Of a stretch of DNA of 64,000 nucleotides, positions 24,013 through 46,093 are shown piece by piece. Position numbers and translations under genes: made by a program. The notes under the pieces were generated by a model. The model did no database searches. It worked only from the letters and a program-made list of their open reading frames with translations, and was not told where the DNA came from. Each line of letters starts with the position of its first letter. The first letter of the stretch is position 1. Source of the stretch: a virus. Lineage: Duplodnaviria > Caudoviricetes. Location of the stretch: IMG/VR virus record IMGVR_UViG_3300005512_002353; one strand, 5' to 3'.

Positions 24013-24041
24013 ATTATATGATCAAGTGAATTATTTGTCAA
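24013..24041 (-). promoter_or_regulatory. sigma70-type promoter TTGACA-N17-TATAAT with GATC next to -10
   Basis: ttgaca aataattcacttGATCa tataat actaat ATG. Confidence 0.88.
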
Positions 24042-24044
24042 GTA

Positions 24045-24701
24045 TTACTTGATATATGTTTCTAAGTGTTTAGCCCATAGATCGTGTGCATCTTGTCCAT
24101 AGTGCATTCGGTGATCAGCATAATTACAACCATGTTCCATACTATATCTACTAAAACTTTCAGCAGTCCAATCCGGCTTAACATAAGGATCATGCACCCA
24201 GCAATCTCCCCAGTCAAACTTGAATGCCATCTCTTGTTCTGGTTCACGGTCAAAGAAGTGTGTTAAGCATCCTTGATAGAATAAGTGTTTGAATCCTTGT
24301 TGTTCTAATAGTTTGTGAAACACATAGATCTGATTATGTTGTTCGGCGTGTTTGTCAAAATTTCTACCATCTACAAACGCTTCAACACGCTCCCGCCTTA
24401 CGTTATCAAGTTCAGGATCAACCTTGTATTCAAAGTCTCCACAGATCTGATGCCATTGATCTTTGTAGTAATATTCTGTCCTCTCAAAACTAGACCAACC
24501 TATTATGATCAGTGTATCTTTTGGATCTAGGTCAGGGAGTCTTTCCTGTGTGGTTCTTATGATGCGTTGATTGCTACCGCCGGGTAGTGCTATGTTCTCA
24601 TAATCCCACCCAAACTTTTTGGCTAACTGTTCTGTAGCAGTTATACCACCACTGGGATAGACTTGTGCTGTATGGCTGTCACCGTTTACAAATAATTTCA
24701 T
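24045..24701 (-). CDS. SGNH/GDSL hydrolase-like protein
   Basis: NGDSHT, NIALPGGSNQRI, IGWS..ER, MHYGQDAH. Confidence 0.65.
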   Translation of the reverse strand: MKLFVNGDSHTAQVYPSGGITATEQLAKKFGWDYENIALPGGSNQRIIRTTQERLPDLDPKDTLIIIGWSSFERTEYYYKDQWHQICGDFEYKVDPELDNVRRERVEAFVDGRNFDKHAEQHNQIYVFHKLLEQQGFKHLFYQGCLTHFFDREPEQEMAFKFDWGDCWVHDPYVKPDWTAESFSRYSMEHGCNYADHRMHYGQDAHDLWAKHLETYIK

Positions 24702-24988
24702 AATCCAAATTTTAACCTACACATTGTTACACATCGAGGATCTTTAAATCTAAGAACCATGCCGTCTGTATGCACATCTGCTGACCAATCATGACCAGGT
24801 AATCCAAACTCCTCTGTTACCCAGGCCATGTATTCATTCCACATCACTATAGTGTCGCCTCGTTTCCATTCAACTAGTATTTCGTATACTGCGTCTTCAA
24901 CTACAGGGTATGACATTAGATGTCTATCCATCGCTTTCTCCAAACACCAGAACAAAATATTCTGCTTCACGTTCTGTGTTAAAAACAA
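24698..24988 (-). CDS. hypothetical protein (real start probably ATG 24931)
   Basis: ORF track; ends LRFKDP..MCRLKF. Confidence 0.6.
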   Translation of the reverse strand: MFLTQNVKQNILFWCLEKAMDRHLMSYPVVEDAVYEILVEWKRGDTIVMWNEYMAWVTEEFGLPGHDWSADVHTDGMVLRFKDPRCVTMCRLKFGL

Positions 24989-25151
24989 AGTAGAGATGCT
25001 TTCTACCTCTGATGACTGCTCCGTATTGTTCTGCTAGCCACAGTGCCATCTCATTGGACACATTCTCTGACTCCATAGCCCATTGATCTCTTCTTTTCAT
25101 AAACGTGGTTTGAACCTGCGTCCAATATGGATCAATTGGTAGTTTTATCAT
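24924..25151 (-). CDS. hypothetical protein
   Basis: ORF track. Confidence 0.6.
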   Translation of the reverse strand: MIKLPIDPYWTQVQTTFMKRRDQWAMESENVSNEMALWLAEQYGAVIRGRKHLYFVFNTEREAEYFVLVFGESDG

Positions 25152-25683
25152 CGCTTAAAAATGTCAGTATAGCATACTGATTGTTTTTTGTCACTGGTTG
25201 ACTCTCAAATTGGTAAGAAAAGTCACTAGGAAAAACAATCATCATACCTGGTTTAAATTTGATGTAGACGTTTTGTGTGGGGAAGATTAGTTCTAGTCCA
25301 CCGTTGATACTCAATAGTGCAGTCAATGCTTGATTGCGATTATAGCCTCTTGGTAGACTCTGATCTTTTTTGAACCTAAGCAATTGATAGGGACTATTGC
25401 TCTGCATATCTTCTGCTATATTGTATCTAGGAATATACTCTCTTACCGTTTCGGCAAGTATGTCACGGAAGTCTTCATAAATTTTATGTATAATTGGATT
25501 AGGTGATTTTCTCACAGTCCGTGATAAGTTGAGTGCATCACAGTAACCTGCAGACTCCCAATTGACCAGGTCTCTTTCTGGATCTTGACACTGACTTTCT
25601 AATAGCTCAATGGTATTCTTAGGATACTCCCAACAGTCCTCAAATACGTCTATGGCTCCGCCCAATGTCTTGATGTGCTTCAT
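25132..25683 (-). CDS. prolyl-4-hydroxylase-like 2OG-Fe(II) fold protein, metal ligands apparently lost
   Basis: YQLLRF..GGLELIF..KPGMMIVFPS.F.Y...PVT...Y scaffold without HxD...H. Confidence 0.55.
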   Translation of the reverse strand: MKHIKTLGGAIDVFEDCWEYPKNTIELLESQCQDPERDLVNWESAGYCDALNLSRTVRKSPNPIIHKIYEDFRDILAETVREYIPRYNIAEDMQSNSPYQLLRFKKDQSLPRGYNRNQALTALLSINGGLELIFPTQNVYIKFKPGMMIVFPSDFSYQFESQPVTKNNQYAILTFLSDDKTTN

Positions 25684-25925
25684 TATGATCGTTCGTTGTC
25701 GTGGTCTAATACAAATCTAAGACATAGATCTCGTGCCCTGTCTTTGTCCTGCTCAGTGTATATATGCCACGTGGAGATGCCATCCGCAGAACTTGGATTG
25801 TATGATAGGCTGGCTACTTCTGGAAAATAATTAAGAAATTCCTCGCCATATCTGGCCTTAGGATTGACTAGAACCTGTGCTGTGAACCAGCGATCAAATT
25901 CGTCAAAGTCTTCCCTGTTTATCAT
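25683..25925 (-). CDS. hypothetical protein
   Basis: ORF track. Confidence 0.6.
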   Translation of the reverse strand: MINREDFDEFDRWFTAQVLVNPKARYGEEFLNYFPEVASLSYNPSSADGISTWHIYTEQDKDRARDLCLRFVLDHDNERS

Positions 25926-26160
25926 CTACAAACCTTAAGTGGTAATACGTTAACCATCTGTTTAATTCATGTTCGCTGGTCCATAACCACTTTCCGTATG
26001 CTTTCTTTTGGACGAAAGGAAGGTCTGCTAATTCACCGTCAACAAGTTGGACATGATCATTCCACTCAATTATGTCCTCTGTGTTATACAAAGGTTCTTT
26101 TAATTTAAGTTTCATCAATGTCTTGTTCTGAAACTTTTCTATGTCAAATGTTAGTTCCAT
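25903..26160 (-). CDS. hypothetical protein
   Basis: ORF track. Confidence 0.6.
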   Translation of the reverse strand: MELTFDIEKFQNKTLMKLKLKEPLYNTEDIIEWNDHVQLVDGELADLPFVQKKAYGKWLWTSEHELNRWLTYYHLRFVDDKQGRL

Positions 26161-26453
26161 CTCAATAAAAAAGCATCCACTTCACGACTTGTTGCCAGAT
26201 AAATCCTATTAGCATGGACAGAAGTTTGATTCTCCCAGCACCATACTGTATTTACGTCTGTAGATTTCATTAGGGCTTTCCAACTCTGTAGGTCAATGCT
26301 GGCGCCAAGATTTTCCCAGCACCAGGTCATTGCCGTATTAAAATCCTCTACTGCCTGTTGATAACTGATACGATCAAACTCAATGCAGTAGAGGAAGTGG
26401 GGGTTTGCGTTCCATTGGACTGAGGTCTTCTTGACCTTAAAGGACCGCCTCAT
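26151..26453 (-). CDS. hypothetical protein
   Basis: ORF track. Confidence 0.65.
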   Translation of the reverse strand: MRRSFKVKKTSVQWNANPHFLYCIEFDRISYQQAVEDFNTAMTWCWENLGASIDLQSWKALMKSTDVNTVWCWENQTSVHANRIYLATSREVDAFLLRWN

Positions 26454-27538
26454 TACTGAGCGGCCTTCAAGATGTATTTGCCATACTTGTCGTGGAACTT
26501 GTCAAACGATTTAAGTTTAGTAGGACTAAATTTTAAATCATATGTGGTAAGTGCTGTTCTAGCACCCATGACCGTGATCTCTGTCTCAAAGTTCTTCATC
26601 ATGTAGTCAAAGAAGTTGTCTAGTGATTTATACCATTCTTTCTCTTCGACCTTCTTCTCTTGCCTGTCCGCCAGTTCATAGCACATGGATACCACCAATG
26701 AATACATAGCTGAAATATCTTTGATCTCAAGATCTTTAACTTTCCCATCTAAGATATCTGTTGGATTAGGCATTTGACTGGCCACTTTTCTATGTGCCAT
26801 GAACTTGACAGCAAGTCCTTCTCCAACTGCCCCCGCTATAAGGTTGAGTAGGGCATTCTTGTCGGTGTCGTTATCTTCTAATAGCTCTGATACAAACGAC
26901 CACGAACGGGGGGTAGCGAAAGCCCTACTCGAACTCTTGGGATCGAAATCGTATAAGTCTTGTTTTGAATAAGCAAGATAACCAATCACGTCCTTGTGTA
27001 TTTTATTTTTAACTGCCCACTGCTCCCATGACTCAAAGTCCACACGCATCTCTTGGTGTATGAATCTATTGGCCAATGGAGTAGGCATTCTGTATACAAC
27101 ACCCTTGTCTGACTCTCTGTTACCAGCGGCCACCATAACAACGTTATCAGGAAGTTTATACTTGCCCACACGTCTGTTAAGGATTAATTGATATGCCGCG
27201 GCCTGCACAGCAGGTGCTGATGAATTCATTTCGTCTAAGAATAATACCACTACTGGATAGTCTTTGGCAGTGGCCTCGTCAGGTAAATCAATTGGAGGAG
27301 CCCAATCCATTAAGCCTGAGTCTTTATTGTAAAAAGGAATACCACGAATGTCTGTAGGATCCATTTGACCTAGACGTAGATCAATCATAAGACCCTTCAT
27401 ATCGTTGGTAATGTCTGCTACTAGTTCTGATTTACCAATGCCTGGAGGACCCCAAAGGAACACTGGTCTTTGTTTTTCAAAGCACTTCTTCAGCGTGACT
27501 CTTGCTTCTTGTGCTGTTATCGTTCTATTTTCTGACAT
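26453..27538 (-). CDS. MoxR-like AAA+ ATPase
   Basis: Walker A GPPGIGKS, Walker B LFLDE, AAGNR, PLANRF, TPRSW. Confidence 0.92.
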   Translation of the reverse strand: MSENRTITAQEARVTLKKCFEKQRPVFLWGPPGIGKSELVADITNDMKGLMIDLRLGQMDPTDIRGIPFYNKDSGLMDWAPPIDLPDEATAKDYPVVVLFLDEMNSSAPAVQAAAYQLILNRRVGKYKLPDNVVMVAAGNRESDKGVVYRMPTPLANRFIHQEMRVDFESWEQWAVKNKIHKDVIGYLAYSKQDLYDFDPKSSSRAFATPRSWSFVSELLEDNDTDKNALLNLIAGAVGEGLAVKFMAHRKVASQMPNPTDILDGKVKDLEIKDISAMYSLVVSMCYELADRQEKKVEEKEWYKSLDNFFDYMMKNFETEITVMGARTALTTYDLKFSPTKLKSFDKFHDKYGKYILKAAQ

Positions 27539-27570
27539 CTAAAACCCCCGTTTCATTTAATAACAATACT

Positions 27571-27599
27571 AGTATATGATCATTCTATTTCTGTGTCAA
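27571..27599 (-). promoter_or_regulatory. sigma70-type promoter TTGACA-N17-TATACT with GATC next to -10
   Basis: ttgaca cagaaatagaatGATCa tatact. Confidence 0.82.
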
Positions 27600-27870
27600 G
27601 CTCTTTTTCTGATTCTTCACCGTGCTTGTGTAACTCGTATGGACCTAAGAATCTACGCACACCGTCCTCATCAGGTGCTGGCTGTATACTACTTTCCCAA
27701 TCTCTCAGTCCTTGGAACTCCAGACTGCCGTCGTGCTGTTTTGGTTTTTCTTCTGGTTTAAGATTTAAAGGATTTAACCAACGTAGATATTCTATGTATG
27801 CCATGATCGGAATACAAACGATTATCGTGACGTAGAATATACATCTATATAGATCCGCTCTGTTTATCAT
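27580..27870 (-). CDS. hypothetical membrane protein
   Basis: Single N-terminal hydrophobic helix. Confidence 0.55.
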   Translation of the reverse strand: MINRADLYRCIFYVTIIVCIPIMAYIEYLRWLNPLNLKPEEKPKQHDGSLEFQGLRDWESSIQPAPDEDGVRRFLGPYELHKHGEESEKELDTEIE

Positions 27871-28021
27871 CTTGTTTATATTTTGCTTTTAAAAACCATT
27901 TCCATTTATTAAAATAGTCTTGTGGACTACCTGTAACTTGTCTTCTCTCCCATTGTTCAACTTCGTCTTTATATTCATACCACTTTTCATAACAGTAAGT
28001 TCTAAAGGGAGAACGATTCAT
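27845..28021 (-). CDS. hypothetical protein
   Basis: MNRSPFRTY...; ATG 28021 overlaps the upstream TGA. Confidence 0.6.
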   Translation of the reverse strand: MNRSPFRTYCYEKWYEYKDEVEQWERRQVTGSPQDYFNKWKWFLKAKYKQDDKQSGSI

Positions 28022-28155
28022 AGTTTCTTGGCCTTCCATAGTTTAATTTTTAATTGGATGTTCTGTATAAAATATTCAGCAACGCCTGTCTTCCATGCCC
28101 ACAGCAGATCCATTACGATCGCACCTGCCAGCATTCCTAATAAAAAGTTAAGCAT
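28018..28155 (-). CDS. small membrane protein (45 aa)
   Basis: Not in track; MLNFLLGMLAGAIVMDLLWAWK..., AAGGAG RBS. Confidence 0.6.
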   Translation of the reverse strand: MLNFLLGMLAGAIVMDLLWAWKTGVAEYFIQNIQLKIKLWKAKKL

Positions 28156-28164
28156 ATTTACTCC

Positions 28165-28515
28165 TTACCACCATGAATTGTAATAAACTTTGCGACCGCC
28201 AGCAATATCACCTCTGGCTTCCTCAACAAAGGCCAAGTCTTGATCTCTGTAGTATTCATCTGCAGGACCTCCAAAAAAGAAGCCCTGTGTTTCTGGAAGA
28301 TCTCTCATTAGTATAACATTTTCTAATACGTTAAGATCTTCAAGTGTTAGTTCAACTTCAACACAATTAAACTGATCTTCTGTGTTACCAGTTTTATCTC
28401 TCCATAACTTTTCCATGAAGCCATGTAAGTTAGGATGTTTTCTCCAGGCACTAAGCTCTCTGGTGTTTTTACTAGTTGCTCTTGCCTTGCTGTATGCCAT
28501 CATGTCTAAACCCAT
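28165..28515 (-). CDS. conserved phage protein (MGLD...WRKHPNLHG...YYNSWW type)
   Basis: Recognisable phage-hypothetical motif pattern. Confidence 0.75.
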   Translation of the reverse strand: MGLDMMAYSKARATSKNTRELSAWRKHPNLHGFMEKLWRDKTGNTEDQFNCVEVELTLEDLNVLENVILMRDLPETQGFFFGGPADEYYRDQDLAFVEEARGDIAGGRKVYYNSWW

Positions 28516-28548
28516 AATTTCTACCCCTAAAAATTAACTAACAATAAT

Positions 28549-28798: not shown

Positions 28799-28808
28799 AT
28801 ATTTCTCC

Positions 28809-28883: not shown

Positions 28884-28915
28884 GATTTCTCCTTGATTCC
28901 TAATTTATAGCCATA

Positions 28916-28944
28916 ATTATACACTATATTGTATATTGTGTCAA
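28916..28944 (-). promoter_or_regulatory. sigma70-type promoter TTGACA-N17-TATAAT
   Basis: Perfect consensus. Confidence 0.88.
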
Positions 28945-29032: not shown

Positions 29033-29301
29033 GCTATCAATCCGTAGGTATCAATGGCTGTTAGTAGTAGATAATTGGCCAACATACCAAATGATCCTCG
29101 GGTAAAACTGGCCCAAGCATACAGTGAACAGCCCACGACCCATAATATATAGATCAATAGCAAGGGTGGGGTAGGCACTGTCAAGGCCATGATGGCACTG
29201 GCCGCGATGCTTAGTGTCCAAGCAATGACTTCTATGCCGAATCGTATGGGATTGCTTTTAAAGTCGGTGAGAATAAATTTAAGAACAGGACAGTTTTTCA
29301 T
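29023..29301 (-). CDS. small membrane protein (3 TM), paralog of 59126..59410
   Basis: DFKSNPIRFGIE vs SYKSDPTAFGFE; hydrophobic. Confidence 0.65.
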   Translation of the reverse strand: MKNCPVLKFILTDFKSNPIRFGIEVIAWTLSIAASAIMALTVPTPPLLLIYILWVVGCSLYAWASFTRGSFGMLANYLLLTAIDTYGLIAIL

Positions 29302-29873
29302 TAGTCCTCGATCTTTTTAAATAAATGATCTGCTAGTCCTAGTTCAACAGCCTGTTGTGCTGTGAACCATTGGTCAGTCGGGTTTAACAAGTTCTTCTTG
29401 ACCCATTTGGCATCCTGTCCTGTTGCCTTGACCAAGATATCTAACATGCGTTCAGCACAGTAGTCTGACTCTGCTAGGCTTGCACGTATGTCATGATGCT
29501 TGCCGTAGATCTCTTCTGAGAACTCATGACACATCACACCCGTGTTTGGTGCTAGGAACCTATGGCCCTTCTCACCGTTGACGAATATCATGAACGCTGA
29601 CGACATGATTGAACCCATGCCCACAGTGTAGATTGGAGTGTGGCTGGCATTCATGGCATCTATTAACGCAAAGGCATCATATAGGTTACCACCAGGCGAA
29701 TTGATGTATAAGGTAAGATGTTTCTTGTTACCTTCAAGGTTTTCAAATGTTAACCAACGCAGGATGTTATCAACCTTGTCAGCATCTATCTCTCCATGTA
29801 GGAAATTAACACCGTGATTGAATAGTCCTGATCTTATTAGTTCTTTTACGTCACCCTGTGGTTGTAGTTTCAT
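29301..29873 (-). CDS. clpP: ClpP-like serine protease (S14)
   Basis: LYINSPGG, IMSSA (Ser), MCHE (His), DQWFTAQQAVELGLAD. Confidence 0.9.
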   Translation of the reverse strand: MKLQPQGDVKELIRSGLFNHGVNFLHGEIDADKVDNILRWLTFENLEGNKKHLTLYINSPGGNLYDAFALIDAMNASHTPIYTVGMGSIMSSAFMIFVNGEKGHRFLAPNTGVMCHEFSEEIYGKHHDIRASLAESDYCAERMLDILVKATGQDAKWVKKNLLNPTDQWFTAQQAVELGLADHLFKKIED

Positions 29874-30121
29874 CGTCTCCCCTTGGTTATTTCCTCATGT
29901 TCCTGACAATATGTGCAGAGCTGGACACCCGGTATGGCCTTTTGACGGGCTTCTGGTATGTCATCACCGCATTCCACGCACTCCGTGGCACTTGGTTGTT
30001 CTGCCATCTTGGCCAGTTTCTTTTGAACGTCACTGACTGCATTCATGTTGATATGCAATGAATGCAATTGAGCCATTTCATCTTCGGCTTCGTTGTTATA
30101 TTGAAAGTCGTCATTACTCAT
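29870..30121 (-). CDS. TraR/DksA C4 zinc-finger protein
   Basis: ECVECGDDIPEARQKAIPGVQLCTYCQ; acidic N-terminal helix; start set to ATG 30121. Confidence 0.9.
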   Translation of the reverse strand: MSNDDFQYNNEAEDEMAQLHSLHINMNAVSDVQKKLAKMAEQPSATECVECGDDIPEARQKAIPGVQLCTYCQEHEEITKGRR

Positions 30122-30380
30122 TTTCTGTCTCTTCTTCCTCTTCGACATGTGGATCAACGAAGTCAGTTGGATAATTATGAGTTATCAATCCCGCCTCGAT
30201 CTCCTTTAATGCTATCGTTGGATACTTGTGTCCCTCGATGTCATCAATAAGGGGTTTCATTCCCTTCTGCAGATCATGTGCCCTACGTGCGGCCACAATG
30301 ATTAGATTGTATTTACCACCCGGATAATTGCTTTGAACGTTTGGATCTACGATATGTGTTGTTATTTTGGAATAGGCCAT
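30114..30380 (-). CDS. rpoZ: RNA polymerase omega subunit homolog
   Basis: KYNLIIVAARRAHDL..G..PLI....K.PTIALKEIEAGLI. Confidence 0.85.
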   Translation of the reverse strand: MAYSKITTHIVDPNVQSNYPGGKYNLIIVAARRAHDLQKGMKPLIDDIEGHKYPTIALKEIEAGLITHNYPTDFVDPHVEEEEETENE

Positions 30381-30408: not shown

Positions 30409-30437
30409 ATTATATGATCTTACGAGACGGTTGTCAA
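30409..30437 (-). promoter_or_regulatory. sigma70-type promoter TTGACA-N17-TATAAT with GATC next to -10
   Basis: ttgaca accgtctcgtaaGATCa tataat. Confidence 0.88.
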
Positions 30438-31942
30438 CCTAAAAGTTTACGACATTCTTCTAGTTCGGGAATATAATCCACCAACCTGATTCCTCTGGTT
30501 TGATCAAGTTGATCATTATACTCAAAAAATTGTTTTAGTAGTTTAAGATCGCATTTAGGATTGTTACTGTAGTGTGCTAACAAACTGTCAACAGTTGATC
30601 TACAACTACGTCCATCACTTAGATATGTATTTGTTTGTTGACAACGTTTCATTGACTCCATAACCAGATCTGGTCTAGGATGATTATATGCTGACTGCCA
30701 CTCGTTATGATTTACTTGAACATACAATCCTGGATTAGGCCATTCACGATCAAAGTATTCAAATAGTAAATGCAAGTTAGTTACATTATACATGCCCGGA
30801 ACCACTAAAAATGTAACGTTATGGCCTTTTGATTTTAATAGTTTGGCATTGTTCATCATTTGATCAAAGTCGCTGAGCCAACGTTGGTAATCATTTATCT
30901 TACTATAACCGTCAACGCTGACACTGAAATTCATATTGGTAAAATGGTCTATCAACTTTAGGAACTTGGGAGTATAGCTGACGGCATTGGTGCCGATGGT
31001 AAAATCAAAATCAGTGTTACCGGCTTCAATACATTTCTCCATGAAGTCATAGAACTCAGGCATCACACTGGGCTCTCCACCTGTCAGATAGATCCTGGAC
31101 TTATCGTTCAACTTTGTTATGTCAACATGCTCAAAACTTGAATACTTGAATGTTTGTTCTTGCGGAAAGATTATATTGTTTGAGGTGTATTCCTTATCGA
31201 TCAGATGGCTATGCTCCGGCTTACATGATCGACACATGATGTTACATTTATTGCTTAATCTGATTTCATAATAGTAGGGTTGTTCTATGGTCTGGAGATC
31301 CTCTATGGAACGTAGACCTAACTTACTGATCCATTCTAACGTCTCAAACTGTCGTGAGCTCTCAACGCCTCTCTCCTCATAAGCATAGCAACCATCCTGG
31401 CAATACTCAGGGATCTTTTCACCATTGATCATCTTCTCCCTAATTTCCTTGTATTCAGGTGCTGATTTCCAATCAATGATGTCAACGGCTCTGTCTGCAA
31501 CCTTGGCCTTTGATCTTGCACACAGTGTCACATGACCATGTTCTTCTATCAATTCAATGAAGGGATATATACAAAAGCTCTTGTTTGTCTGGACCAGATT
31601 CTGGAAGAACTCTATCCCCCTTACGCTTTCCTCGTTGTCGATCCTGACATCTATTAGTTTGTCCAGTTCTTTAATGAGCTTATATGTTGATAGGAATAAT
31701 TTCCAATGGGTCCATTCTTGTATTGGTTGGTCTAGCAGTCGAACTTGATCAAAATGTTTAGCCAGCTTGACTATCTGTCCGCTAGTTAAGTCAACTATGG
31801 TTGTATGATAGTATCCGTCTTGTGTTGGAACAAAAGAGGGATCCTCAATCAGCCCATGGTTCGTGGTTGAACTTTGTTTGGCTAGGTCTGACACCAAGAG
31901 GTCGGTATTTCTGCTGTTATTTCCTAAACAAAGTATCTTCAT
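30434..31942 (-). CDS. N-twitch radical SAM protein with extra N-terminal domain (#9), paralog of 4797..6275
   Basis: KILCLGNN; SFCIYPF; CQDGC; CNIMCRSC; TGGEP. Confidence 0.9.
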   Translation of the reverse strand: MKILCLGNNSRNTDLLVSDLAKQSSTTNHGLIEDPSFVPTQDGYYHTTIVDLTSGQIVKLAKHFDQVRLLDQPIQEWTHWKLFLSTYKLIKELDKLIDVRIDNEESVRGIEFFQNLVQTNKSFCIYPFIELIEEHGHVTLCARSKAKVADRAVDIIDWKSAPEYKEIREKMINGEKIPEYCQDGCYAYEERGVESSRQFETLEWISKLGLRSIEDLQTIEQPYYYEIRLSNKCNIMCRSCKPEHSHLIDKEYTSNNIIFPQEQTFKYSSFEHVDITKLNDKSRIYLTGGEPSVMPEFYDFMEKCIEAGNTDFDFTIGTNAVSYTPKFLKLIDHFTNMNFSVSVDGYSKINDYQRWLSDFDQMMNNAKLLKSKGHNVTFLVVPGMYNVTNLHLLFEYFDREWPNPGLYVQVNHNEWQSAYNHPRPDLVMESMKRCQQTNTYLSDGRSCRSTVDSLLAHYSNNPKCDLKLLKQFFEYNDQLDQTRGIRLVDYIPELEECRKLLG

Positions 31943-32919: not shown

Positions 32920-33676
32920 TGTAATCAATTATTCTTCCTGACGGATCAAAGTCTCCCGGAAAGTGTTCGTAGTTTGAATCTCCCGGTCTGGCATGATGAT
33001 TGTTATGTAGTCCTTCACCTGCTAGAATAAAACTAAACAACTGTGAGTTCCAACTATTATCTTTCGTTGGTTGTTTGCGACTGGAAAAGTTAGGCAAATG
33101 TGCTATTACAGTAACATATCCCATACCTAATAAAACATATAGAACAGGCATAGCATAAAAGTATCCAACTAATATAGGATCTACTAAAGCAAGTAATAAA
33201 GGATACACCAGAGTAATCTTCCAATAATGTCGATTAAAGAAACTGTGATCTTTATCTCTGATTAGATCTTTAATTACCATTGGATTAATTTTATATTCAG
33301 GAAACCAATAAAAAAATAATTTAATCTTATGTCCGATGCCTTGATCTAAATAGTAAGGATCTTTTTCTGTATCTGAATGAACATGATGTTGTCTATGACC
33401 AGCGGCAAATGCTATGCTACTGCCCATGGTCACTTGATTACCTGCCCACAACAAAAACAATTTAATGAATCTATTTTTGGGTTCAAATGTTCTGTGGCTT
33501 GAATACTTGTGTAAAGATATCGCTAGACCAAAACAATAGAACATCCAGCTTACAATTAGACCAGACAATAGTAAGGTCCAGCTAAACGCATGGATCACAC
33601 TTAATAAAAAAATTATTAAACTGACCAGATGTGCTAGTTTAACTCGATCGTAATTTGACAACGGAAATATCTTCAT
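32897..33676 (-). CDS. membrane fatty-acid desaturase (delta-9-like)
   Basis: HKYSSH, HRQHH, GEGLHNNHH. Confidence 0.92.
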   Translation of the reverse strand: MKIFPLSNYDRVKLAHLVSLIIFLLSVIHAFSWTLLLSGLIVSWMFYCFGLAISLHKYSSHRTFEPKNRFIKLFLLWAGNQVTMGSSIAFAAGHRQHHVHSDTEKDPYYLDQGIGHKIKLFFYWFPEYKINPMVIKDLIRDKDHSFFNRHYWKITLVYPLLLALVDPILVGYFYAMPVLYVLLGMGYVTVIAHLPNFSSRKQPTKDNSWNSQLFSFILAGEGLHNNHHARPGDSNYEHFPGDFDPSGRIIDYIKCDKSA

Positions 33677-33725
33677 GCTATAATATTCAAATAATTAATT
33701 ATAATGTATTTAACAAGGTAAGTCC

Positions 33726-34436
33726 ATGGCAACAAAAGAACCATTGGTATTAATTGGTTGTAGAGCAGAAATGAGTTTTTTCACTGATACTGCCAAACAA
33801 CTAGGAATAGAAGTATTGGGTATCATTGATCAATATTACTATGGTAATACTAAAACAGTAGACGACGTTCCCGTTATTGGCAGTGAGCTTGATCTGTTAG
33901 ATAACCCAACACTATACAATGATGCTAAGTTTATGTTGGCTAATACCTGGGACGGTAATACTAGGTTTGGCAACTTAGAACACGATGGTTATCATTTACG
34001 TCAACAACGATTAGAGTTAATTAATAAACTCAACTTACCTTTACATACCCTAATAGACCCAAGGTCTATTGTTGGAGAAACTGTTGAAGTAGGCCCTGGT
34101 TCGTATATTGGTCCAATGGTTAACATACGTTCTAAAACTAAAATAGGCAGTAATGTTTTTATACATGATAATGTTATGTTAGCACACGACATAGAAATAG
34201 GTGATGGCAGTGTTTTGGCACCTGATTGCACAGTGTTGGGAGGTGTTAAAATTGGAACTAATGTTTATGTTGGTGCCTGTGCTTGTTTAGTAAATGGACA
34301 TAGCACTAAACAGCCTTTTATTACCATTGGTGATAATTCAAAAATACATGCTAGGGCGTTGGTTCAGAAAGACTTACCTGCTAATTCGATAGCAACATTC
34401 AATGGACGTGTTATGAAACGTTCTGATTTAAAATAA
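33726..34436 (+). CDS. NeuD/PglD-like hexapeptide-repeat acetyltransferase
   Basis: N-terminal Rossmann-like part, TLIDP, left-handed beta-helix repeats, AHD motif. Confidence 0.85.
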   Translation: MATKEPLVLIGCRAEMSFFTDTAKQLGIEVLGIIDQYYYGNTKTVDDVPVIGSELDLLDNPTLYNDAKFMLANTWDGNTRFGNLEHDGYHLRQQRLELINKLNLPLHTLIDPRSIVGETVEVGPGSYIGPMVNIRSKTKIGSNVFIHDNVMLAHDIEIGDGSVLAPDCTVLGGVKIGTNVYVGACACLVNGHSTKQPFITIGDNSKIHARALVQKDLPANSIATFNGRVMKRSDLK

Positions 34437-36865: not shown

Positions 36866-37855
36866 TTAATCTGGATAACTTGCGTTCAAACATTCTGCTA
36901 TCTTGTCAGCGTTGTCTGATAATCTGTTTAATTCATACTTGCCACAAAACTTTAAGAACTTGGCACCTACCATGGGTATCTGTTTCTTAACTGAGTTTTC
37001 AGCAATAGTTTCCGCTATAATCTTTTTAATATCATCTGGCTGTGCTGTTAGATCAACTAACACTCTATTACGCTCATAGTCATCCAACACACGATGTTCC
37101 ACTTCATTGTGATCTACCCAACGCTGTAACATAAGATTATTCCATGAGTAACCTTTCTTGGCCTTGTCCTCAAATGCTTCTTGTAGGCCAACTTTGTTAC
37201 GAGTGCCTTTGGTCCTCACACCTGGATATGCTGAAAAGATGTTGTCTGTGGGATCACCACGCATACATTTTTCAAACAATATCCATTCTGGATTTGGTAT
37301 TACTTTAGGCTCTTTTGTTTTCTTGTCAATAACACGCTCACCTTTTTTATCAAATATACCTTCAACAGTGTGTAGTTCATCTGAAATACCATTGTATTGA
37401 TTTACATTTTCTGCTAACAGTTGATAGAAGTCTGTGTCACTAGATACAATAGTATGATGATCATCTGGATGACTCTGTATCCAACCTGCTATCAAATCAT
37501 CTGCTTCTAGTTGTTGATGTTGTAAGACAGTGCAGTTTGTTTTGTCTTTGATAAAGTCTTTAAGATCATCAAAGGCTTCCCAAAACATCTTATCTTCTTT
37601 TGCTTCTTTCTCAGTTAGTGCCTGACGTGCTACCTGTCTGTTTTTCTTATACGGCTCGTAATAGTCTTTGCGCCATGAACGTCCTTCTAGACAAAAGATA
37701 ACATGATCTGCTTTTTGCTCTCGCCATGCTTTGTTGATACTTGCTAGAGTAACGTGTATAGCAAAGCCTAGTCGTTCCCATTCATCTGCACCTCTGTATG
37801 CTGAGTGCCTAGCTCTAAAAAATGTATTTGCTGTGTCTATTAAAAGATATCTCAT
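36866..37855 (-). CDS. rnh: T4 RNase H-like 5'-3' exonuclease
   Basis: LLIDTAN, SWRK.YY.PYK.NR, EADDLIA, SSDTDFYQL, GDPTDNI. Confidence 0.9.
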   Translation of the reverse strand: MRYLLIDTANTFFRARHSAYRGADEWERLGFAIHVTLASINKAWREQKADHVIFCLEGRSWRKDYYEPYKKNRQVARQALTEKEAKEDKMFWEAFDDLKDFIKDKTNCTVLQHQQLEADDLIAGWIQSHPDDHHTIVSSDTDFYQLLAENVNQYNGISDELHTVEGIFDKKGERVIDKKTKEPKVIPNPEWILFEKCMRGDPTDNIFSAYPGVRTKGTRNKVGLQEAFEDKAKKGYSWNNLMLQRWVDHNEVEHRVLDDYERNRVLVDLTAQPDDIKKIIAETIAENSVKKQIPMVGAKFLKFCGKYELNRLSDNADKIAECLNASYPD

Positions 37856-37861: not shown

Positions 37862-37890
37862 ATTATAAGATCAAATTAATTTATTGTCAA
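37862..37890 (-). promoter_or_regulatory. sigma70-type promoter TTGACA-N17-TATAAT with GATC next to -10
   Basis: ttgaca ataaattaatttGATCt tataat attagt ATG. Confidence 0.88.
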
Positions 37891-38563
37891 GTATGTGCTT
37901 CATTACCCTCTTAGCCCAAGCACCATGTGCTCGTTCATCATAATGATAACTGTCCGGGCTAACAGTTTGGTAACCATTTTCCTGTAGCCACGAGTGATAT
38001 GATCCTGTATATGGGTCTATATATTGTGAACCAAAATCATACTGTTCTTTGATTTTTGAAAAGTCTGTGTTACCATTAAAAAACAAGTGTGGTATGTTTT
38101 GTTCAGTTAAATGTTCATGATATTTGATGATACGCTTGTGCCAATTATTAGTTGAACGTGTCCAATCAACATTGGCCACAAACTCTTTGTATTTTTGTTG
38201 ATGGCTTTCAGGAACATGATCAACACCTGACGCATTGACTTGGAAGTATTTGCCGTCTATGTTCCATTCTTCTCTTTCCCAGGTTGACCACTGTATGATG
38301 ACAAACACATCCTGTGATTGATGCTCTGCTAACCATTGGTTAGTAGTTCTTAGGATACGATCATTTGAACTAGCAGATTCTGCCAGAACATGTGTTGCGA
38401 CATTGAGCATGTTGCCTAACTTCTTGCCCCAACTTACTCGTAGATTATCAGGATGTGGGACCCTGCCCATGTAGACATATTTACGATCATCTTCTGCAAA
38501 TGCGTGACTGTTGACTGCCTCTGCACCTGCTGTGTGACTGTCACCGTTGATCAGTAACTTCAT
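37871..38563 (-). CDS. SGNH/GDSL hydrolase-like protein
   Basis: NGDSHTAG, SASSNDRI, IQWSTWER, YHYDERAH; paralog of 24045..24701. Confidence 0.65.
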   Translation of the reverse strand: MKLLINGDSHTAGAEAVNSHAFAEDDRKYVYMGRVPHPDNLRVSWGKKLGNMLNVATHVLAESASSNDRILRTTNQWLAEHQSQDVFVIIQWSTWEREEWNIDGKYFQVNASGVDHVPESHQQKYKEFVANVDWTRSTNNWHKRIIKYHEHLTEQNIPHLFFNGNTDFSKIKEQYDFGSQYIDPYTGSYHSWLQENGYQTVSPDSYHYDERAHGAWAKRVMKHILDNKLI

Positions 38564-40149: not shown

Positions 40150-40923
40150 TTATACCTTTCTTGCCTTTACTAATAAGTGCCAACCCAAATACTCTCGAAC
40201 TGCTTCACGCATGAGTTCTGGCATGGCCTCAAACCAAGGTTCCAATTTAAACTTACCTTGCTTATACTTCTCTACATTATACATGAAACAGTGTGCTTGA
40301 CGCAACCTTTCTACAGTAAATTTTTTACCTAAAAGTTCATGTATCTCATCTGCTGTAAACGCTTCTGCGTATGGACAATCTGATTGTGCTTCAAACTGAT
40401 CTAGTCCTTTACGGATCATAGCATACTTCCATGAGTTCTTGGCATAGACCATAAACTTAAATTCACCATTGGTATTTAGAATACTGTGAACGTTGTCTAT
40501 AATTTTTTCTATGTTTGGAAAGTGATGTATAACACCGTAACTGTAAACTAGGTCAAACTTACCTAGTTTTTCGAGTGCTTCTAGATCTGTCATGTCTACA
40601 TTATGAAACTCGCCTTCTAGTTCAAACACTTCAAAGCGTTTTCTACTAAGTTCTAAACTTTCTGTTGATAAGTCAATGCCAACATAGTGGGCACCATTTT
40701 GTGCAAACTGTTGAGCATCTGTGCCAATACCACAACCAATTTCTAACACACGCTTACCTCTGTATTGATGAAACTGTGGAAAGTCTAGGTTATGTGGTTC
40801 TGCCTTGTAGCGTTTAGCAGTTACTTCTTCAAAGAACTCCTTTGTGCCCACAGGACTAGTTCCATGTTTGACATTACAAGGTTGTCTATTCCAGTAGTCT
40901 TTAATTTCTTGTTCTATGCTCAT
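40150..40923 (-). CDS. class I SAM-dependent methyltransferase
   Basis: VLEIGCGIG, GIDLS, FDLVYSYGVIHH. Confidence 0.9.
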   Translation of the reverse strand: MSIEQEIKDYWNRQPCNVKHGTSPVGTKEFFEEVTAKRYKAEPHNLDFPQFHQYRGKRVLEIGCGIGTDAQQFAQNGAHYVGIDLSTESLELSRKRFEVFELEGEFHNVDMTDLEALEKLGKFDLVYSYGVIHHFPNIEKIIDNVHSILNTNGEFKFMVYAKNSWKYAMIRKGLDQFEAQSDCPYAEAFTADEIHELLGKKFTVERLRQAHCFMYNVEKYKQGKFKLEPWFEAMPELMREAVREYLGWHLLVKARKV

Positions 40924-41810: not shown

Positions 41811-42245
41811 TTATTTCCACCAATCCTCCCATGGAAACACGATCCAGACATCATCTTCCATTTTGTTAATATTGATACTAGAGTAATCAACATCAGCATC
41901 ACTGGCTTCGTTGTTGATTAGAACAGCATAGGTCAAGTTACCTATCCAGTGTTCTTTTATGTAATTAATTGTAGCACCTGTGTCGTTGATGTCATCTATA
42001 ACTAACACTCGTTGACCACTTAGTTTGTCTAACACTTTTAGACTTTCTTTTTCTTGATGATCTCTAAGACTTACCTTTAAGGTGTGCATAGGTATGTCTA
42101 GGTATTGTGAAACCAGCACAGCGGGTGTTAAACCACCCCTTGTGAGCCCAACTACTGCATCAAACTTCTCATCTCTAATCTGACGTAGTATGTCCTGCGT
42201 CATGCCCTCAACCTGCGACCATGTATAATATGCTTTCTTAGTCAT
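41811..42245 (-). CDS. purine phosphoribosyltransferase (xanthine-guanine PRT-like)
   Basis: GLTRGGL, VLVIDDINDTGAT (PRPP loop), WIVFPWE. Confidence 0.9.
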   Translation of the reverse strand: MTKKAYYTWSQVEGMTQDILRQIRDEKFDAVVGLTRGGLTPAVLVSQYLDIPMHTLKVSLRDHQEKESLKVLDKLSGQRVLVIDDINDTGATINYIKEHWIGNLTYAVLINNEASDADVDYSSININKMEDDVWIVFPWEDWWK

Positions 42246-42247
42246 TG

Positions 42248-42697
42248 TTAGCCCTCGTAGATTGCTGAGTTAGCACCGTGCTCAGCACACTCTACTGAAT
42301 GCACCCAACAACGATTGTTTGATTGTTCTCTGATTAGTTTGTCTGCAAAGTTAAATGCGTGTTCGGCAAACTTCTCTGCACCAACACCATCCAGGACTAC
42401 AACCTCTAATAAATCTAATTCTTGCAATTCCATGAACTTGTCCAAGTGTGGGTCTGCTTTATCAATAGCAGTCTTATGATCAAAGTGATCTTCTAACCAT
42501 TTCTTAATTTGTTTAAGCCCGCCAAAGTCTACTGCCCAGTTCTTGTTGTCTAAGTGATCACATGCAAATGTAAACTTAAACTGTAGACTGTAACCATGTA
42601 GTAAATGACAGTGTGAATGATCAGCATTAGGTTGTCTAAAACATGCTGATAGCCCAATGTTATGACCATATGTTTTTGTTGAATAAAATTTAGCCAT
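42248..42697 (-). CDS. queD: 6-carboxy-5,6,7,8-tetrahydropterin synthase (QueD/PTPS family)
   Basis: HSHCHLLHGY, VDFGGLK, FDHK, AEKFAE, EHGANSA. Confidence 0.85.
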   Translation of the reverse strand: MAKFYSTKTYGHNIGLSACFRQPNADHSHCHLLHGYSLQFKFTFACDHLDNKNWAVDFGGLKQIKKWLEDHFDHKTAIDKADPHLDKFMELQELDLLEVVVLDGVGAEKFAEHAFNFADKLIREQSNNRCWVHSVECAEHGANSAIYEG

Positions 42698-42785
42698 CTC
42701 TTGCCTCCTAAAAGTAAGTGTGATGACAGGCAGAATATTTTAAGACGGATGACTGTCTCGAGACGTCTTTGAGTATTCTATTTAG
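42693..42785 (-). promoter_or_regulatory. structured 5' leader of queD (candidate cis-regulatory RNA) behind CTAAATA
   Basis: AAGACG/CGTCTT stem, A-rich tail, anti-SD TGCCT and anti-AUG GTCATC segments. Confidence 0.5.
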
Positions 42786-42930
42786 CATCGTCTGAACGTT
42801 GCCTGCGATAATTTGCATTTCTAGTTTGTTCCTCAATGGCCTTCTTCATAAGTTTTAAAAATAACTTATCACCATTGGCTAATACTTTTAACTCTTTTTT
42901 AATCAGTGTTGCTTTTGGATCGTATCCCAT
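42778..42930 (-). CDS. small protein (50 aa)
   Basis: Not in track; MGYDPKATLIKKELK...; AGGAG RBS. Confidence 0.55.
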   Translation of the reverse strand: MGYDPKATLIKKELKVLANGDKLFLKLMKKAIEEQTRNANYRRQRSDDAK

Positions 42931-43106
42931 TTCATCTCCTCTATATAACATTCATCCATCATCTGTAGCATCATCTTGGTAGTCATGCGTCCAGCAAGAT
43001 ATTCATCAAGTTGGCTCCTGCAATAGTCACTGACTTCTACACCCTCCAATTTCAGTGATGCTATTGCTTGATCAACTGCCTGTTGTCTATCAATCTTTTT
43101 GGCCAC
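42903..43106 (-). CDS. VbhA-like antitoxin (Fic inhibitor)
   Basis: R..AV..AIASLKLEG (S/TxxxEG inhibitory motif) ...Y.AG.MT. Confidence 0.75.
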   Translation of the reverse strand: MAKKIDRQQAVDQAIASLKLEGVEVSDYCRSQLDEYLAGRMTTKMMLQMMDECYIEEMKWDTIQKQH

Positions 43107-43557
43107 GTTCTGCCTCTGCTACTCGTTTGCGTAATGAACTTGAACTAAATGAATGATCACGACCATTAAACACTAGTTCAATTCCTCTCTTCTTGCAGAT
43201 ATCTCGACCAGTGAACTCCTTGTCTTGATACTCCACTCCTAATATTCTAACATCAATCGGCAGTGTGAGCAAGATATCTTCCAAATCTTTTTCCGTTTGA
43301 TATACCACAATCTCATCAACGAAACGATTACAGGCTAACTGTATTTGTCTTTCAACTATTGATTGAACTGGAGGGTTCTTTGAATCTGGTCTATCTATGG
43401 TAGGATCTGTTTGTAGGCCAGCAATAAGATAATCACAATGATTCTTTGCCTCTGCTAACATAGCAACGTGACCTGCATGAAGCAGGTCGAACGTTGAGAA
43501 TGTTATGCCTATCTTAAGGCCTTGGTCTTTGAGCTCTCTGACTTTGTTGAATATCAT
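43090..43557 (-). CDS. cytidylyltransferase (TagD-like)
   Basis: TFDLLHAGH, ER..QL, VDEI, RDHSFSSSSL. Confidence 0.88.
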   Translation of the reverse strand: MIFNKVRELKDQGLKIGITFSTFDLLHAGHVAMLAEAKNHCDYLIAGLQTDPTIDRPDSKNPPVQSIVERQIQLACNRFVDEIVVYQTEKDLEDILLTLPIDVRILGVEYQDKEFTGRDICKKRGIELVFNGRDHSFSSSSLRKRVAEAERGQKD

Positions 43558-46031
43558 TAGAACTCCATTGACCAGTATGCACCTACTCTTGAATCACCAA
43601 ACTCGTCAACAACACCATTCATTCTCACTGAGTGTTCGTTGTTAAACTTGTCCTTGTGATTGACCAAGTTGTATTGAGCACCAACATACTTGACCACATC
43701 ACCTTTAAGACTTGCCTTGGCTGATGTGTAGTGCATGTTACCTGATGCGTCAACTGTTGTTGGAATCTGCATGTGAACGTTACCACTGATCACGGTTGGT
43801 TTGAAACCTACATACAAGTTCCAGTTGTCGTTGGCCCAACCAGCCATACCATACATACTTGTGATTGGATCTACCTCTCTAACCAAACCTTGTTCAAACT
43901 GTGTCGTGGTATACATCACACCAAGTTGTCCATAGAAGTTGTTAGGCTTATACATCTGTGAAAACTCAAATGTCTGTGAACTTCTAGTCTGACCCCACAT
44001 GCCACTGAACGCCATGAACGGTGAACCATAGCTCTGTGTGAATGTAAACTTACTGGTCCAGTCACTTGGATTTTCAACAGCACCTGTGTATGGATTACGT
44101 TTCATGAACACTGAATCATCAAAACCTACAGTAAAGTTCTGGACTGATTCTCTGTCCATGGTGTATGGAGTTTCGTATGCGTTGAAATACATACCCTTAT
44201 ACTCCTGTGCACCACCAACGAACTTACTTGACCATGAACTACCAACTGAGTGATCTAATTGATAGATTGGAATCATGGAGTTCATAGTAGTGGCCGCCGG
44301 CTTCAAATTGATAGTATAGTGTCTATCAATTGAGTCAACGACTGAGACAGAACTCAATGATGCCAATGCACCTTCATCCACACCTGCGATAGCAATACCA
44401 CCTGATAGAGGAACAGTAGTGCCTGTCCTGCCTGTGTATGAAATACCAACATCACCCAATGGCTGTGTCGCCTTGTCTAAGTCTAATAGACCACTACCGT
44501 GTGTGTCTTCGTCATAGCCTGTGATGGTCTTGTCAGCAGTTGTTGTCAACACCTTAACAATGTTATCACCTGTCATGTATGGCCACATCTGATGAACAAC
44601 AGCAACAGCACCTGCAACCACTGGAGCCGCCTGTGATGAACCTGAGAACTCTCTATATCCACCATCGATGTTTGCACCTTCGATGCCCATACCTGGAGCC
44701 AATATATAAAAGTCTTTGGTTCTGTATAAGTCATTACATTGTGCACCATCCCAACTCTTACACATGTGACCTGATGTCTGTCCCTCAACTGTCTGTGTGC
44801 TTACGTTCCAGTTACCTGCGATCAACATACGACCATCTAACACCAATGAACCATCTGCATTGGTAGCAGTGGCAAATGTGGCAGGATTTGAAACATAACC
44901 TTCACCTAGGTTACCAGCAGAAACAACTAAAACTGATTCAGTGCCTTCAAGTTTATTGTTAAACCAACTTGCGGGATTTTCTAAGTTATAGTAATTCTCA
45001 CCACCGTAGTAGTGATGATCACTGGTGTATATACCGTTGCCCTGATATGTCACAGACTCTCTATAATCACCTGAATAGTTTGTGTTTGAACTTAAACTAA
45101 ACACTGTGATATCTAACCCTTGATCTCTGGCATCTTTCATTGATCTCTTAGCAAGAGATGTTGATGAATTCCAGTTGTCCGTAATTTTATAGATAGCCAA
45201 GTTAGCATCTGGAGCAATACCAGTGATGCCTGAACCATCTAACTCACCGGCCGCAATCGACGCAACGTGTGAACCATGTCCAACATTGTCCTGCATGCCA
45301 GTTCCTGTCCAGTCCTTGGTATAAACAATCTTGCCCTCTGAATCAAATTCTTGGTGATCTAGATCAATACCACTGTCCATGATAGCAATAGTAGAACCCT
45401 TACCAGTCCAGCCTCTGGCCAGTGCGGCATCTTGGTTAACTATGCCGTTTAGATTATCAGCAAACTCATCTAGGCCAACATAGTAAGATGATTCGTTACT
45501 GATCATCTCAGTCCTGGTTCCCAAGAACTGGGCGTTTGCTCCAAAGTCCTGATTAACTGCTACATTGGTTGACTTGTCTGTTGAAACGACCTTTGTAGGC
45601 TCTTCTTTCTTAGCATACTCAATGATCTTTTCGGTAACCTGTGTATCAGCAAGTGTCCTAGTCTCACCCGAAGATTCTCTTATAGTTTCTCTATAAGTTC
45701 TTCCTTTGTGAGTTTTTTGTTTGAGTATACCACGTCTGTTGACTTTCTCCATCTTGAACACTTGACGTTTTTGAACTACCTTCTCAACTACGTCTGCTGT
45801 GATCTCATAAGTTTTGACGATGGTCTTCTCAACAGTATTACCATCTGCGTCCTTATACTGCTCTGTTGAAGTTTCCGTCGTTGTTGAGACATTACCTGGT
45901 AATGCCTTGCTTGAAAAAGTTTTAACGGTCTCAACGTATGTGTCCACGACCTGCCATGGTATCACGGCCAGTGCCGTGGTTGATACTGAAACCATTAAGA
46001 CCAATCCAAGGGCCTTAAGTTTGTTAAACAT
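43557..46031 (-). CDS. secreted S8 subtilisin-like protease with beta-rich C-terminal domain
   Basis: Signal peptide; MDSG (Asp), HGSHVA (His), SAGN, GSSQAAP (Ser); ends YWSMEF. Confidence 0.88.
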   Translation of the reverse strand: MFNKLKALGLVLMVSVSTTALAVIPWQVVDTYVETVKTFSSKALPGNVSTTTETSTEQYKDADGNTVEKTIVKTYEITADVVEKVVQKRQVFKMEKVNRRGILKQKTHKGRTYRETIRESSGETRTLADTQVTEKIIEYAKKEEPTKVVSTDKSTNVAVNQDFGANAQFLGTRTEMISNESSYYVGLDEFADNLNGIVNQDAALARGWTGKGSTIAIMDSGIDLDHQEFDSEGKIVYTKDWTGTGMQDNVGHGSHVASIAAGELDGSGITGIAPDANLAIYKITDNWNSSTSLAKRSMKDARDQGLDITVFSLSSNTNYSGDYRESVTYQGNGIYTSDHHYYGGENYYNLENPASWFNNKLEGTESVLVVSAGNLGEGYVSNPATFATATNADGSLVLDGRMLIAGNWNVSTQTVEGQTSGHMCKSWDGAQCNDLYRTKDFYILAPGMGIEGANIDGGYREFSGSSQAAPVVAGAVAVVHQMWPYMTGDNIVKVLTTTADKTITGYDEDTHGSGLLDLDKATQPLGDVGISYTGRTGTTVPLSGGIAIAGVDEGALASLSSVSVVDSIDRHYTINLKPAATTMNSMIPIYQLDHSVGSSWSSKFVGGAQEYKGMYFNAYETPYTMDRESVQNFTVGFDDSVFMKRNPYTGAVENPSDWTSKFTFTQSYGSPFMAFSGMWGQTRSSQTFEFSQMYKPNNFYGQLGVMYTTTQFEQGLVREVDPITSMYGMAGWANDNWNLYVGFKPTVISGNVHMQIPTTVDASGNMHYTSAKASLKGDVVKYVGAQYNLVNHKDKFNNEHSVRMNGVVDEFGDSRVGAYWSMEF

Positions 46032-46064
46032 AACATTTCCTTTCTTTGATTAGAATGCTATGTT

Positions 46065-46093
46065 AGTATATGATCTTATGATTATTTTGTCAA
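46065..46093 (-). promoter_or_regulatory. sigma70-type promoter TTGACA-N17-TATACT with GATC next to -10
   Basis: ttgaca aaataatcataaGATCa tatact. Confidence 0.82.

Follow-up and report, generated by a model that had tools for sequence, protein, structure and literature searches.

In promoters read by sigma70-type RNA polymerase, the TGn motif of the extended -10 element (also described as TRTG or as the '-16 region' of sigma70 and sigmaA promoters) is recognised by sigma region 3.0 within the spacer positions -17 to -13, and the beta-prime zipper lies against the spacer. Near -18, the spacer is sensed by residue R451 of sigma70 (PMC3130263). The early promoters of phage T4 are 'uber' promoters, in which UP, -35, TGn and -10 elements are combined with further consensus positions (Hinton 2010, PMC2988021), and T4-type phages also carry promoter-early stem-loop (PeSL) cassettes (Arbiol et al. 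2010, PMC2839356). For the MamA-dependent promoters of M. tuberculosis, where the methylation site overlaps the 3' end of the -10 hexamer, an effect of methylation has been shown experimentally (Shell et al. 2013, PMC3701705), and the Dam-affected promoters pIN of the IS10 transposase, dnaA P2 and glnS are summarised in the same paper. The present analysis concerns a GATC at -17 to -14 in promoters of the form TTGACA-N12-GATC-W-TATAMT, found in a 64,000-nucleotide stretch of viral DNA (Caudoviricetes; IMG/VR record IMGVR_UViG_3300005512_002353), here called the window, and in a clade of related phages. Judged by its conservation, the GATC element is a conserved spacer element of strong phage promoters.

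With the extended -10, the GATC element has in common the spacer stretch from -17 to -13 and the T at -15. It differs in having C at -14, where TGn has its defining G, and in needing G at -17 and A at -16. The two types are mutually exclusive in the same phages, and the TG type of the clade is itself GGTG rather than the TRTG that control phages show in this place. As in T4, these are promoters of a T4-like phage for the host polymerase, with near-perfect hexamers, extra conserved positions and dense early arrays. T4, however, uses TGn and no GATC element has been reported there, whereas the present element is specific to a clade and replaces TG in part of the promoter set. The likeness to the MamA promoters is one of geometry only, i.e., a short methyltransferase target at one fixed position relative to the -10 hexamers of several unrelated genes; unlike the MamA site, GATC lies upstream of the -10, its slot also holds variants that cannot be methylated, and the class is known from sequence alone. 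The Dam-affected proteobacterial promoters also have GATC in the polymerase-contacted part of a sigma70 promoter, but there it is locus-specific and overlaps the -10 or -35 hexamer, while here one spacer register is common to many promoters. The PeSL cassettes, which can act as recombination substrates, are likewise repeated early-promoter cassettes between small genes, but the conserved part here is 4-6 bp and not a long repeat, and a terminator-type scan saw no stem-loop by the five promoters of the window, although no dedicated stem-loop search was made.

The full pattern has exactly five matches in the window (Table 1), all on the minus strand, and no match in 100 shuffles; the shorter pattern GATC-W-TATAMT is restricted to the same five sites. 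All five promoters have an exact TTGACA, a 17-bp spacer and either TATAAT or TATACT, as expected of sigma70-type promoters, and in all five GATC lies at -17 to -14, i.e., inside the promoter region that is contacted by the polymerase. None is an extended -10 promoter, since T at -15 is followed by C and not by G at -14. Each is co-oriented with the start of a minus-strand open reading frame (ORF) 6 to 35 nt downstream, a layout that is kept in the relatives, while spacers and flanks are otherwise unrelated. These five GATC positions, and the presence of five further promoters without GATC, had been noted by a sequence-only reading of the window. Pattern search recovers both groups, with the proviso that two promoters of the second group (47336 and 50911) may be inside coding sequence, and Pfam agrees with that reading on the genes downstream: DUF2201/VWA, MoxR-like AAA ATPase, omega (Rpb6) with TraR/DksA and ClpP, 5'-3' exonuclease (rnh) and S8 subtilase.

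Table 1. Promoters with perfect hexamers in the window, with and without GATC in the spacer
Feature	Position	Strand	Sequence features	Location and downstream genes
GATC promoter	24013..24041	minus	TATAAT; GATC 24020-24023	before DUF2201/VWA gene 22699-24006
GATC promoter	27571..27599	minus	TATACT; GATC 27578-27581	before MoxR-like AAA ATPase gene 26453-27538
GATC promoter	30409..30437	minus	TATAAT; GATC 30416-30419	before omega 30114-30380, TraR/DksA 29870-30157 and ClpP 29301-29873
GATC promoter	37862..37890	minus	TATAAT; GATC 37869-37872	before rnh/5'-3' exonuclease gene 36866-37855
GATC promoter	46065..46093	minus	TATACT; GATC 46072-46075	before S8 subtilase gene 43557-46031; Shine-Dalgarno-type leader
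Perfect promoter, GACT at -17..-14	20874..20902	minus	two changes from GATC	ATG 8 nt past -10
Perfect promoter, TG (extended -10) type	28916..28944	minus	GTG ahead of TATAAT	
Perfect promoter, TG type, 18-bp spacer	33655..33684	plus	TGC ahead of TATAAT	before hexapeptide acyltransferase gene 33726-34436
Perfect hexamers, TG type	47336..47364	minus	GGTGC ahead of TATACT	within ORF 47104-47703
Perfect hexamers, candidate promoter only	50911..50939	minus	no GATC or TG element	

Consider now how often such an arrangement is expected by chance. Perfect TTGACA-N16-18-TATAMT sites occur ten times in the window, against 0.19 expected, and five of them are without GATC. When only the nine promoters with 17-bp spacers are counted, five share one tetramer in one register, and this degree of sharing was reached in none of 20,000 trials with shuffled spacers and in none of 20,000 trials with random genomic 17-mers. 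The binomial probability of five in nine is 1.2e-9 when it is calculated with the GATC frequency of the window itself, which has 400 sites in its 64 kb. With this, the spacer null for which the sequence-only reading had asked has been run on the window. The frequency of GATC is itself high compared with dinucleotide shuffles (239 sites), but the third-order ratio is only 1.2, and the sites lie mainly in codon phase 0 (GAT-C). The remaining GATC-N-TANNNT sites of the window have at least two mismatches at the -35 position, and from this it follows that the class of GATC promoters is discrete. The positional fixation of GATC is thus real and statistically secure; an epigenetic mechanism behind it is possible but not favoured.

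The window is part of an uncultured T4-like jumbo phage. Its family-B DNA polymerase (PolB) is 43-52% identical to those of the jumbo myoviruses Phosso, Atu_ph07, fHe-Yen9, XaC1, GAP32 and 121Q, with Phosso, Atu_ph07 and the 121Q/GAP32 group as nearest, while a DNA similarity search against cultured phages gave tRNA matches only and no relative at the DNA level. The promoter scans cover the 64-kb window and related contigs. Three of these contigs (L001-L003) were fetched from IMG/VR via the VWA protein, and three larger ones, G001 (275 kb), G002 (262 kb) and G005 (111 kb), are syntenic with the window and have 28-50 ORFs in common with it at a mean identity of 41-49%.

A scan of IMG/VR with one exact promoter sequence gave no match. 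When it was scanned with the 29-nt pattern instead, at least 118 loci of a few kb each were matched, about 40 of which share proteins with the window, and several of which hold two to four copies. The promoter class with a positionally fixed GATC, as proposed from the window alone, accordingly holds and is shared by a clade of uncultured relatives among the jumbo phages. Among 353 unique promoters, 134 have GATC in the register -17 to -14, while all other spacer registers together have 17, against 17.2 expected. Most of the 134 were ascertained by a pattern that contains GATC, but their positional strictness is not an artefact of this, and a general richness of these promoters in GATC is rejected by the background level in the other registers. 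Outside the clade, the element is absent from two control sets. Coliphage 121Q and Yersinia phage fHe-Yen9-03, which are relatives by polymerase and grow on Dam-positive hosts, have 31 perfect promoters, none with GATC and with no obvious preference for G at -17 or A at -16. In a control set of at least 116 IMG/VR loci, ascertained with a TG-type pattern, the 421 unique consensus promoters among the matches listed include no GATC and no GAnC, and about 80% of them are of TG type, chiefly TGTG and TATG, i.e., the classical TRTG. On these counts, the GATC element is lineage-specific, a trait of the clade.

The element extends beyond the four letters of GATC. In 78 perfect promoters with 17-bp spacers, taken from the window, G001, G002, G003, G005 and L001-L003, the most frequent bases at the 3' end of the spacer are T at -18 (47%), G at -17 (56%), A at -16 (67%), T at -15 (55%), C at -14 (41%) and A at -13 (38%), so that the column consensus in the relatives reads T-G-A-T-C-A from -18 to -13. 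The tetramer at -17 to -14 is GATC in 16 of the 78, and most of the other common words differ from it at a single position (GACC 4, GAGC 3, TATC 3).

When the wider clade is considered, the element is found in two flavours. The most frequent words at -17 to -14 are GGTG and GATC, followed by GATG, GAGC, GACC and GAAC, while GGTC is rare. With G at -17 and T at -15 held fixed and the 118 ascertaining matches removed, GATC occurs 24 times, GATG 19, GGTC 3 and GGTG 36 times, which corresponds to a coupling between -16 (A or G) and -14 (C or G) with an odds ratio of 15 (P = 4e-6). The base at -13 goes with the flavour: past GATC it is A, T or G and never C, and past TG it is mostly C or T. Both flavours may occur side by side, as in locus L058 (1549-9905), where a single array alternates between TGTG-C-TATAGT and GATC-A-TATACT promoters; in L066 (458-5302), exact GATC is found in seven of ten promoters, with CATC, GGTC or GACC in the remaining three. 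In both of these early-gene arrays there is one perfect promoter per 300-900 bp, each with a conserved leader after it. In terms of these sequences, the GATC element takes the place of the TG-type extended -10 in part of the promoters of these phages. A different assignment, in which TTGAnC at -19 to -14 is a second -35 hexamer, was rejected upon inspection, there being no -10-like hexamer 17 bp further on.

The tolerance of the element to change is uneven. The clade contains 61 variants that differ from GATC at one position, and the change is at -17 in 5 of them, at -16 in 3, at -15 in 27 and at -14 in 26. Transversions (GAGC 12, GATG 19) are commoner than transitions (GGTC 3, AATC 0, GATT 4). 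A palindromic methylation site in decay would yield a symmetric spectrum with a bias toward transitions, and a directional reader would yield the pattern observed; to judge from the counts, the variant spectrum looks like the outcome of selection by such a reader.

Promoters before orthologous genes can be compared directly. Five relatives whose protein is 80-97% identical keep TTTGATC before rnh, with differences in the 5' half of the spacer and in the base at -13, and at about 60-65% protein identity the promoter is without GATC. Before the VWA gene, the GATCA of the window corresponds to TATCA in L002, where the spacer is otherwise identical and the difference is a single G-to-T change, to ACTCA in L001 and to AGTCA in L003. 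The MoxR promoter has GATCA in the window, TGTCA in four relatives and TATTA in one, and the promoters of the omega region have GACC and GGCT in L001 and L003. For the S8 protease, the relatives reach only about 42% identity, and none has a promoter that is informative here. It follows from this alternation between words that the set of genes that carries the exact GATC is not conserved; what close relatives keep as the stable part is T at -15, C at -14 and A at -13.

The promoters also adjoin or overlap signals of the neighbouring genes. For VWA (24006) and rnh (37855), the ATG begins only 6 nt past the -10 hexamer, and at 20865 it begins 8 nt past it. Because of this short distance, the VWA and rnh mRNAs, and also the one from 20865, probably start at or next to the AUG and are leaderless. 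The spacing is kept in L001-L003 and L006, and more distant relatives have Shine-Dalgarno leaders. On the upstream side, the TGA at -18 to -16 is the stop codon of the preceding ORF both in the MoxR promoter (27580-27582; ORF 27580-27870) and in the rnh promoter (37871-37873; ORF 37871-38563), i.e., in two of the five GATC promoters, while in the omega promoter a TGA inside the -35 hexamer (30434-30436) ends a radical-SAM gene. Among 358 promoters of related loci, long upstream ORFs end at a TGA inside the -35 in 39 cases, at the TGA at -18 to -16 in 33 and 6 nt before the -35 in 22, so that the promoter cassette, as read from these positions, in effect supplies a stop in every reading frame. 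Stop-codon use was considered as the cause of the motif and rejected: only 32 of 103 TGA triplets at -18 to -16 serve as stops, and since the fraction used is about one third, termination is a by-product and not the cause.

The reading favoured here, with a probability of about 0.5, is that GATC stands in for the TGn extended -10 in this clade only, at the position where sigma region 3.0 contacts the DNA of strong early or middle promoters. The five sites of the window would then be early or middle promoters of a T4-like jumbo phage for a host sigma70-type polymerase, and T-G-A-T-C-A at -18 to -13 would be a fourth recognition element besides their perfect -35 and -10 hexamers, with GGTG-C and GATC-A as interchangeable flavours. 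The RNA polymerase holoenzyme, possibly after modification by phage proteins, would read the element directly, and this reading would add binding or isomerisation energy, or would mark a sub-class of promoters. The reader is most likely the host holoenzyme, since a search for a sigma70-type gene in the relatives found none; the omega and TraR/DksA-like proteins encoded by the phage itself have nothing that ties them to the GATC element. That the core of the element is spelled as a Dam site would be incidental, and in this phage the strongest promoters would have come to lie at the exact consensus of the element, as they do for their hexamers.

Several observations weigh against this reading. 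To our knowledge, GATC or GAnC at -17 to -14 is not a described RNA polymerase contact, and the canonical contact requires G at -14, where these promoters have C. Exact GATC is about 2.4-fold more frequent in the 78 promoters than expected from independent columns (16 against 6.6), and all five promoters of the class in the window have the exact word, which may thus be favoured by something. The exact word is also kept amid randomised spacers, both before rnh and, in L008, L039, L081 and L112, in a promoter that a conserved leader follows, and this fits a site-specific reader as well. Furthermore, close relatives conserve T at -15 and C at -14, whereas the wider clade conserves G at -17 and A at -16, and when different halves are conserved at different distances, no single simple matrix describes the element. 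The G at -17, finally, is specific to the clade even in the TG flavour, which direct reading in place of TGn leaves unexplained. The excess of exact GATC, the clade-specific G and the split conservation give room for the sensing of a base modification or for a binding protein encoded by the phage.

Base modification had been the mechanism preferred in the sequence-only reading, where the state of GATC (Dam-type methylation or a deazaguanine swap) was to control the promoters and a specific activator or sigma factor was the alternative; while the fixed promoter class stands, the Dam or deazaguanine part gains no support. In its general form, i.e., a promoter class that is sensitive to Dam-type N6-methyladenine (m6A) or another modified base and that differs in activity between fully modified parental and newly replicated DNA, this explanation is unlikely. 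Methyl groups at -16 of the top and -15 of the bottom strand would project into the major groove under sigma region 3.0, as a timing or shut-off switch for early genes, or, in a variant, 7-deazaguanine would replace G in GA contexts. The more specific proposal, that GATC under sigma region 3.0 senses a modification such that early promoters fire on injected, fully modified DNA and are silent on fresh replicas, is likewise unlikely; what is sensed could be m6A, made by a Dam of the host or by one of the phage that escaped detection, or else a replaced guanine in GA. Strict position, the excess over independent columns and the upkeep of GATC at some orthologous promoters in spite of spacer divergence all agree with modification sensing, and the M. 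tuberculosis promoters modulated by MamA at a fixed site at the -10 provide a precedent (PMC3701705). The upkeep expected of Dam-regulated promoters is nevertheless not borne out: although rnh keeps GATC, close relatives have TATC, ACTC, AGTC, TGTC, GACC or GGCT before VWA, MoxR and omega, and the 61 one-off variants, which are not Dam sites, occupy the same slot with an asymmetric, position-specific bias. Among the jumbo-phage relatives on Dam-positive enterobacteria, moreover, the count is 0 of 31. Nor is a methyltransferase evident. Searches for the Dam-family profiles PF02086, PF05869 and PF01555 in G001, G002, G003 and G005, and for PF02086 and PF05869 in G006-G010, the contigs richest in GATC promoters, found none, with the limitation that these contigs are incomplete; a PF05869 (Dam) gene is present only in the remote G004, so that nine of ten related contigs are without one, and no ORF of the window carries a DPPY-type motif. 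Phages of Dam/MutH hosts tend to counter-select GATC. Here the tetramer is in slight excess, with ratios of 1.08-1.20 across the window and all relatives, and this, when the tendency holds, argues mildly against a Dam/MutH host. Of the precursor genes that the deazaguanine variant calls for, FolE is clear, and there are QueD-like and QueE-like genes with scores below curated cut-offs. Phages are known to have DpdA enzymes whose target motif is GA (PMC10484667); were such an enzyme active in this phage, it would have as substrates both the G in GATC and that in TTGACA. DpdA itself was not found, i.e., there was no TGT-family match in the relatives, and PHROGs, NCBIfam and PDB sequence searches of the neighbouring ORFs of the window were negative. 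The conserved ORF that adjoins folE (47696-48787, 363 aa) is without family match, and its product was modelled as a GT-B glycosyltransferase (predicted local distance difference test score 66; Foldseek E 1e-7 to glycogen synthase and GT4 enzymes), which makes it a candidate sugar transferase of a modification locus and not a TGT/DpdA fold.

When the reader is instead a phage-encoded activator or shut-off repressor that recognises GATC together with the adjacent -10, the element would be the core of its site, and the promoters that carry it would form a sub-class with its own timing, set apart from the TG-type promoters before replication genes. Such a regulator, which is rather unlikely, would account for two discrete flavours in one phage and even in one promoter array, for a motif that is confined to a clade, and for the partition of the window's promoters, with GATC before VWA, MoxR, omega-TraR-ClpP, rnh and S8 and TG-type promoters before the polB-region genes (54551, 58437 and 59691). 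Only 4-6 bp are conserved beyond the hexamers, however, with no consistent extended palindrome or second half-site, no candidate regulator has been identified, and a gene set that changes among close relatives is odd for a regulon. Very unlikely is a historical explanation, in which the shared GATC stems from common descent or from recombinational spread of promoter cassettes and the TGA is kept as a stop for the upstream gene. In the early regions of the relatives, nearly identical promoter cassettes are indeed arrayed so that each small gene has its own, upstream ORFs do end at fixed promoter positions, two of the five window promoters included, and the PeSL cassettes of T4-type phages (PMC2839356) are of this kind. 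But the five spacers and flanks of the window are otherwise unrelated, the terminator-type scan described above saw no adjoining hairpin, about 69% of the TGA triplets at -18 to -16 are not used as stops, and descent leaves the position-specific variant spectrum unexplained; the comparison of VWA promoters already suggests that GATC has arisen independently at non-homologous promoters.

If the polymerase reads the element directly, then GATC can stand in for the TGn extended -10 in a way not described before, and some host-phage systems have a second recognition word that can occupy the stretch from -17 to -13. Such knowledge would be useful for the prediction of phage promoters in metagenomes and for the understanding of sigma region 3.0 specificity. 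If, on the other hand, the element senses modification, it would define the first phage-wide epigenetic promoter class in a fixed register and would offer an explanation, still lacking, of how early transcription is shut off in phages. In either case, the 29-nt pattern is a practical signature by which members of this uncultured jumbo-phage clade can be retrieved from IMG/VR.

Among the promoters without GATC, the one inside ORF 47104-47703 is either an internal promoter towards folE or non-functional. Behind the omega promoter, the genes for the RNA polymerase omega subunit (Rpb6 family), the TraR/DksA zinc-finger protein and ClpP form one operon (29301-30380). The window also encodes ThyX, FolE, a carbamoyltransferase and DegT. 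Between the QueE-like and QueD-like genes there are a gene similar to xanthine/hypoxanthine phosphoribosyltransferases and a class-I SAM methyltransferase gene (41811-42245 and 40150-40923). Radical-SAM paralogues are numerous, with a tandem run on the plus strand and two dispersed copies (1191-11332, 30434-31942 and 50995-52254), and the carbamoyltransferase and DegT aminotransferase genes come after radical-SAM genes.

As regards the host, the MoxR-like gene was compared with 185,579 species genomes, and only three short contigs matched (L172, L173 and L174), which are binned in Bacteroidetes metagenome-assembled genomes, one of them Sediminibacterium. Strong Shine-Dalgarno sites and TTGACA/TATAAT promoters are atypical of Bacteroidota. 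A Bacteroidetes host was rejected because the phage has both, and for the same reason mis-binning of the three contigs is likely.

The tetranucleotide content of the window differs from that of its relatives. GTAC is absent from the window (0 sites in 1-64000, against about 156 expected), and GCGC, CGCG, AGCT and TGCA are depleted to observed/expected ratios of 0.29-0.54. In the syntenic relatives G001, G002 and G005, GTAC is retained at a ratio of about 0.8, while G003 is instead nearly without AGCT (19 sites, ratio 0.04). These gaps, which differ between the window and its relatives, point to lineage-specific avoidance of restriction.

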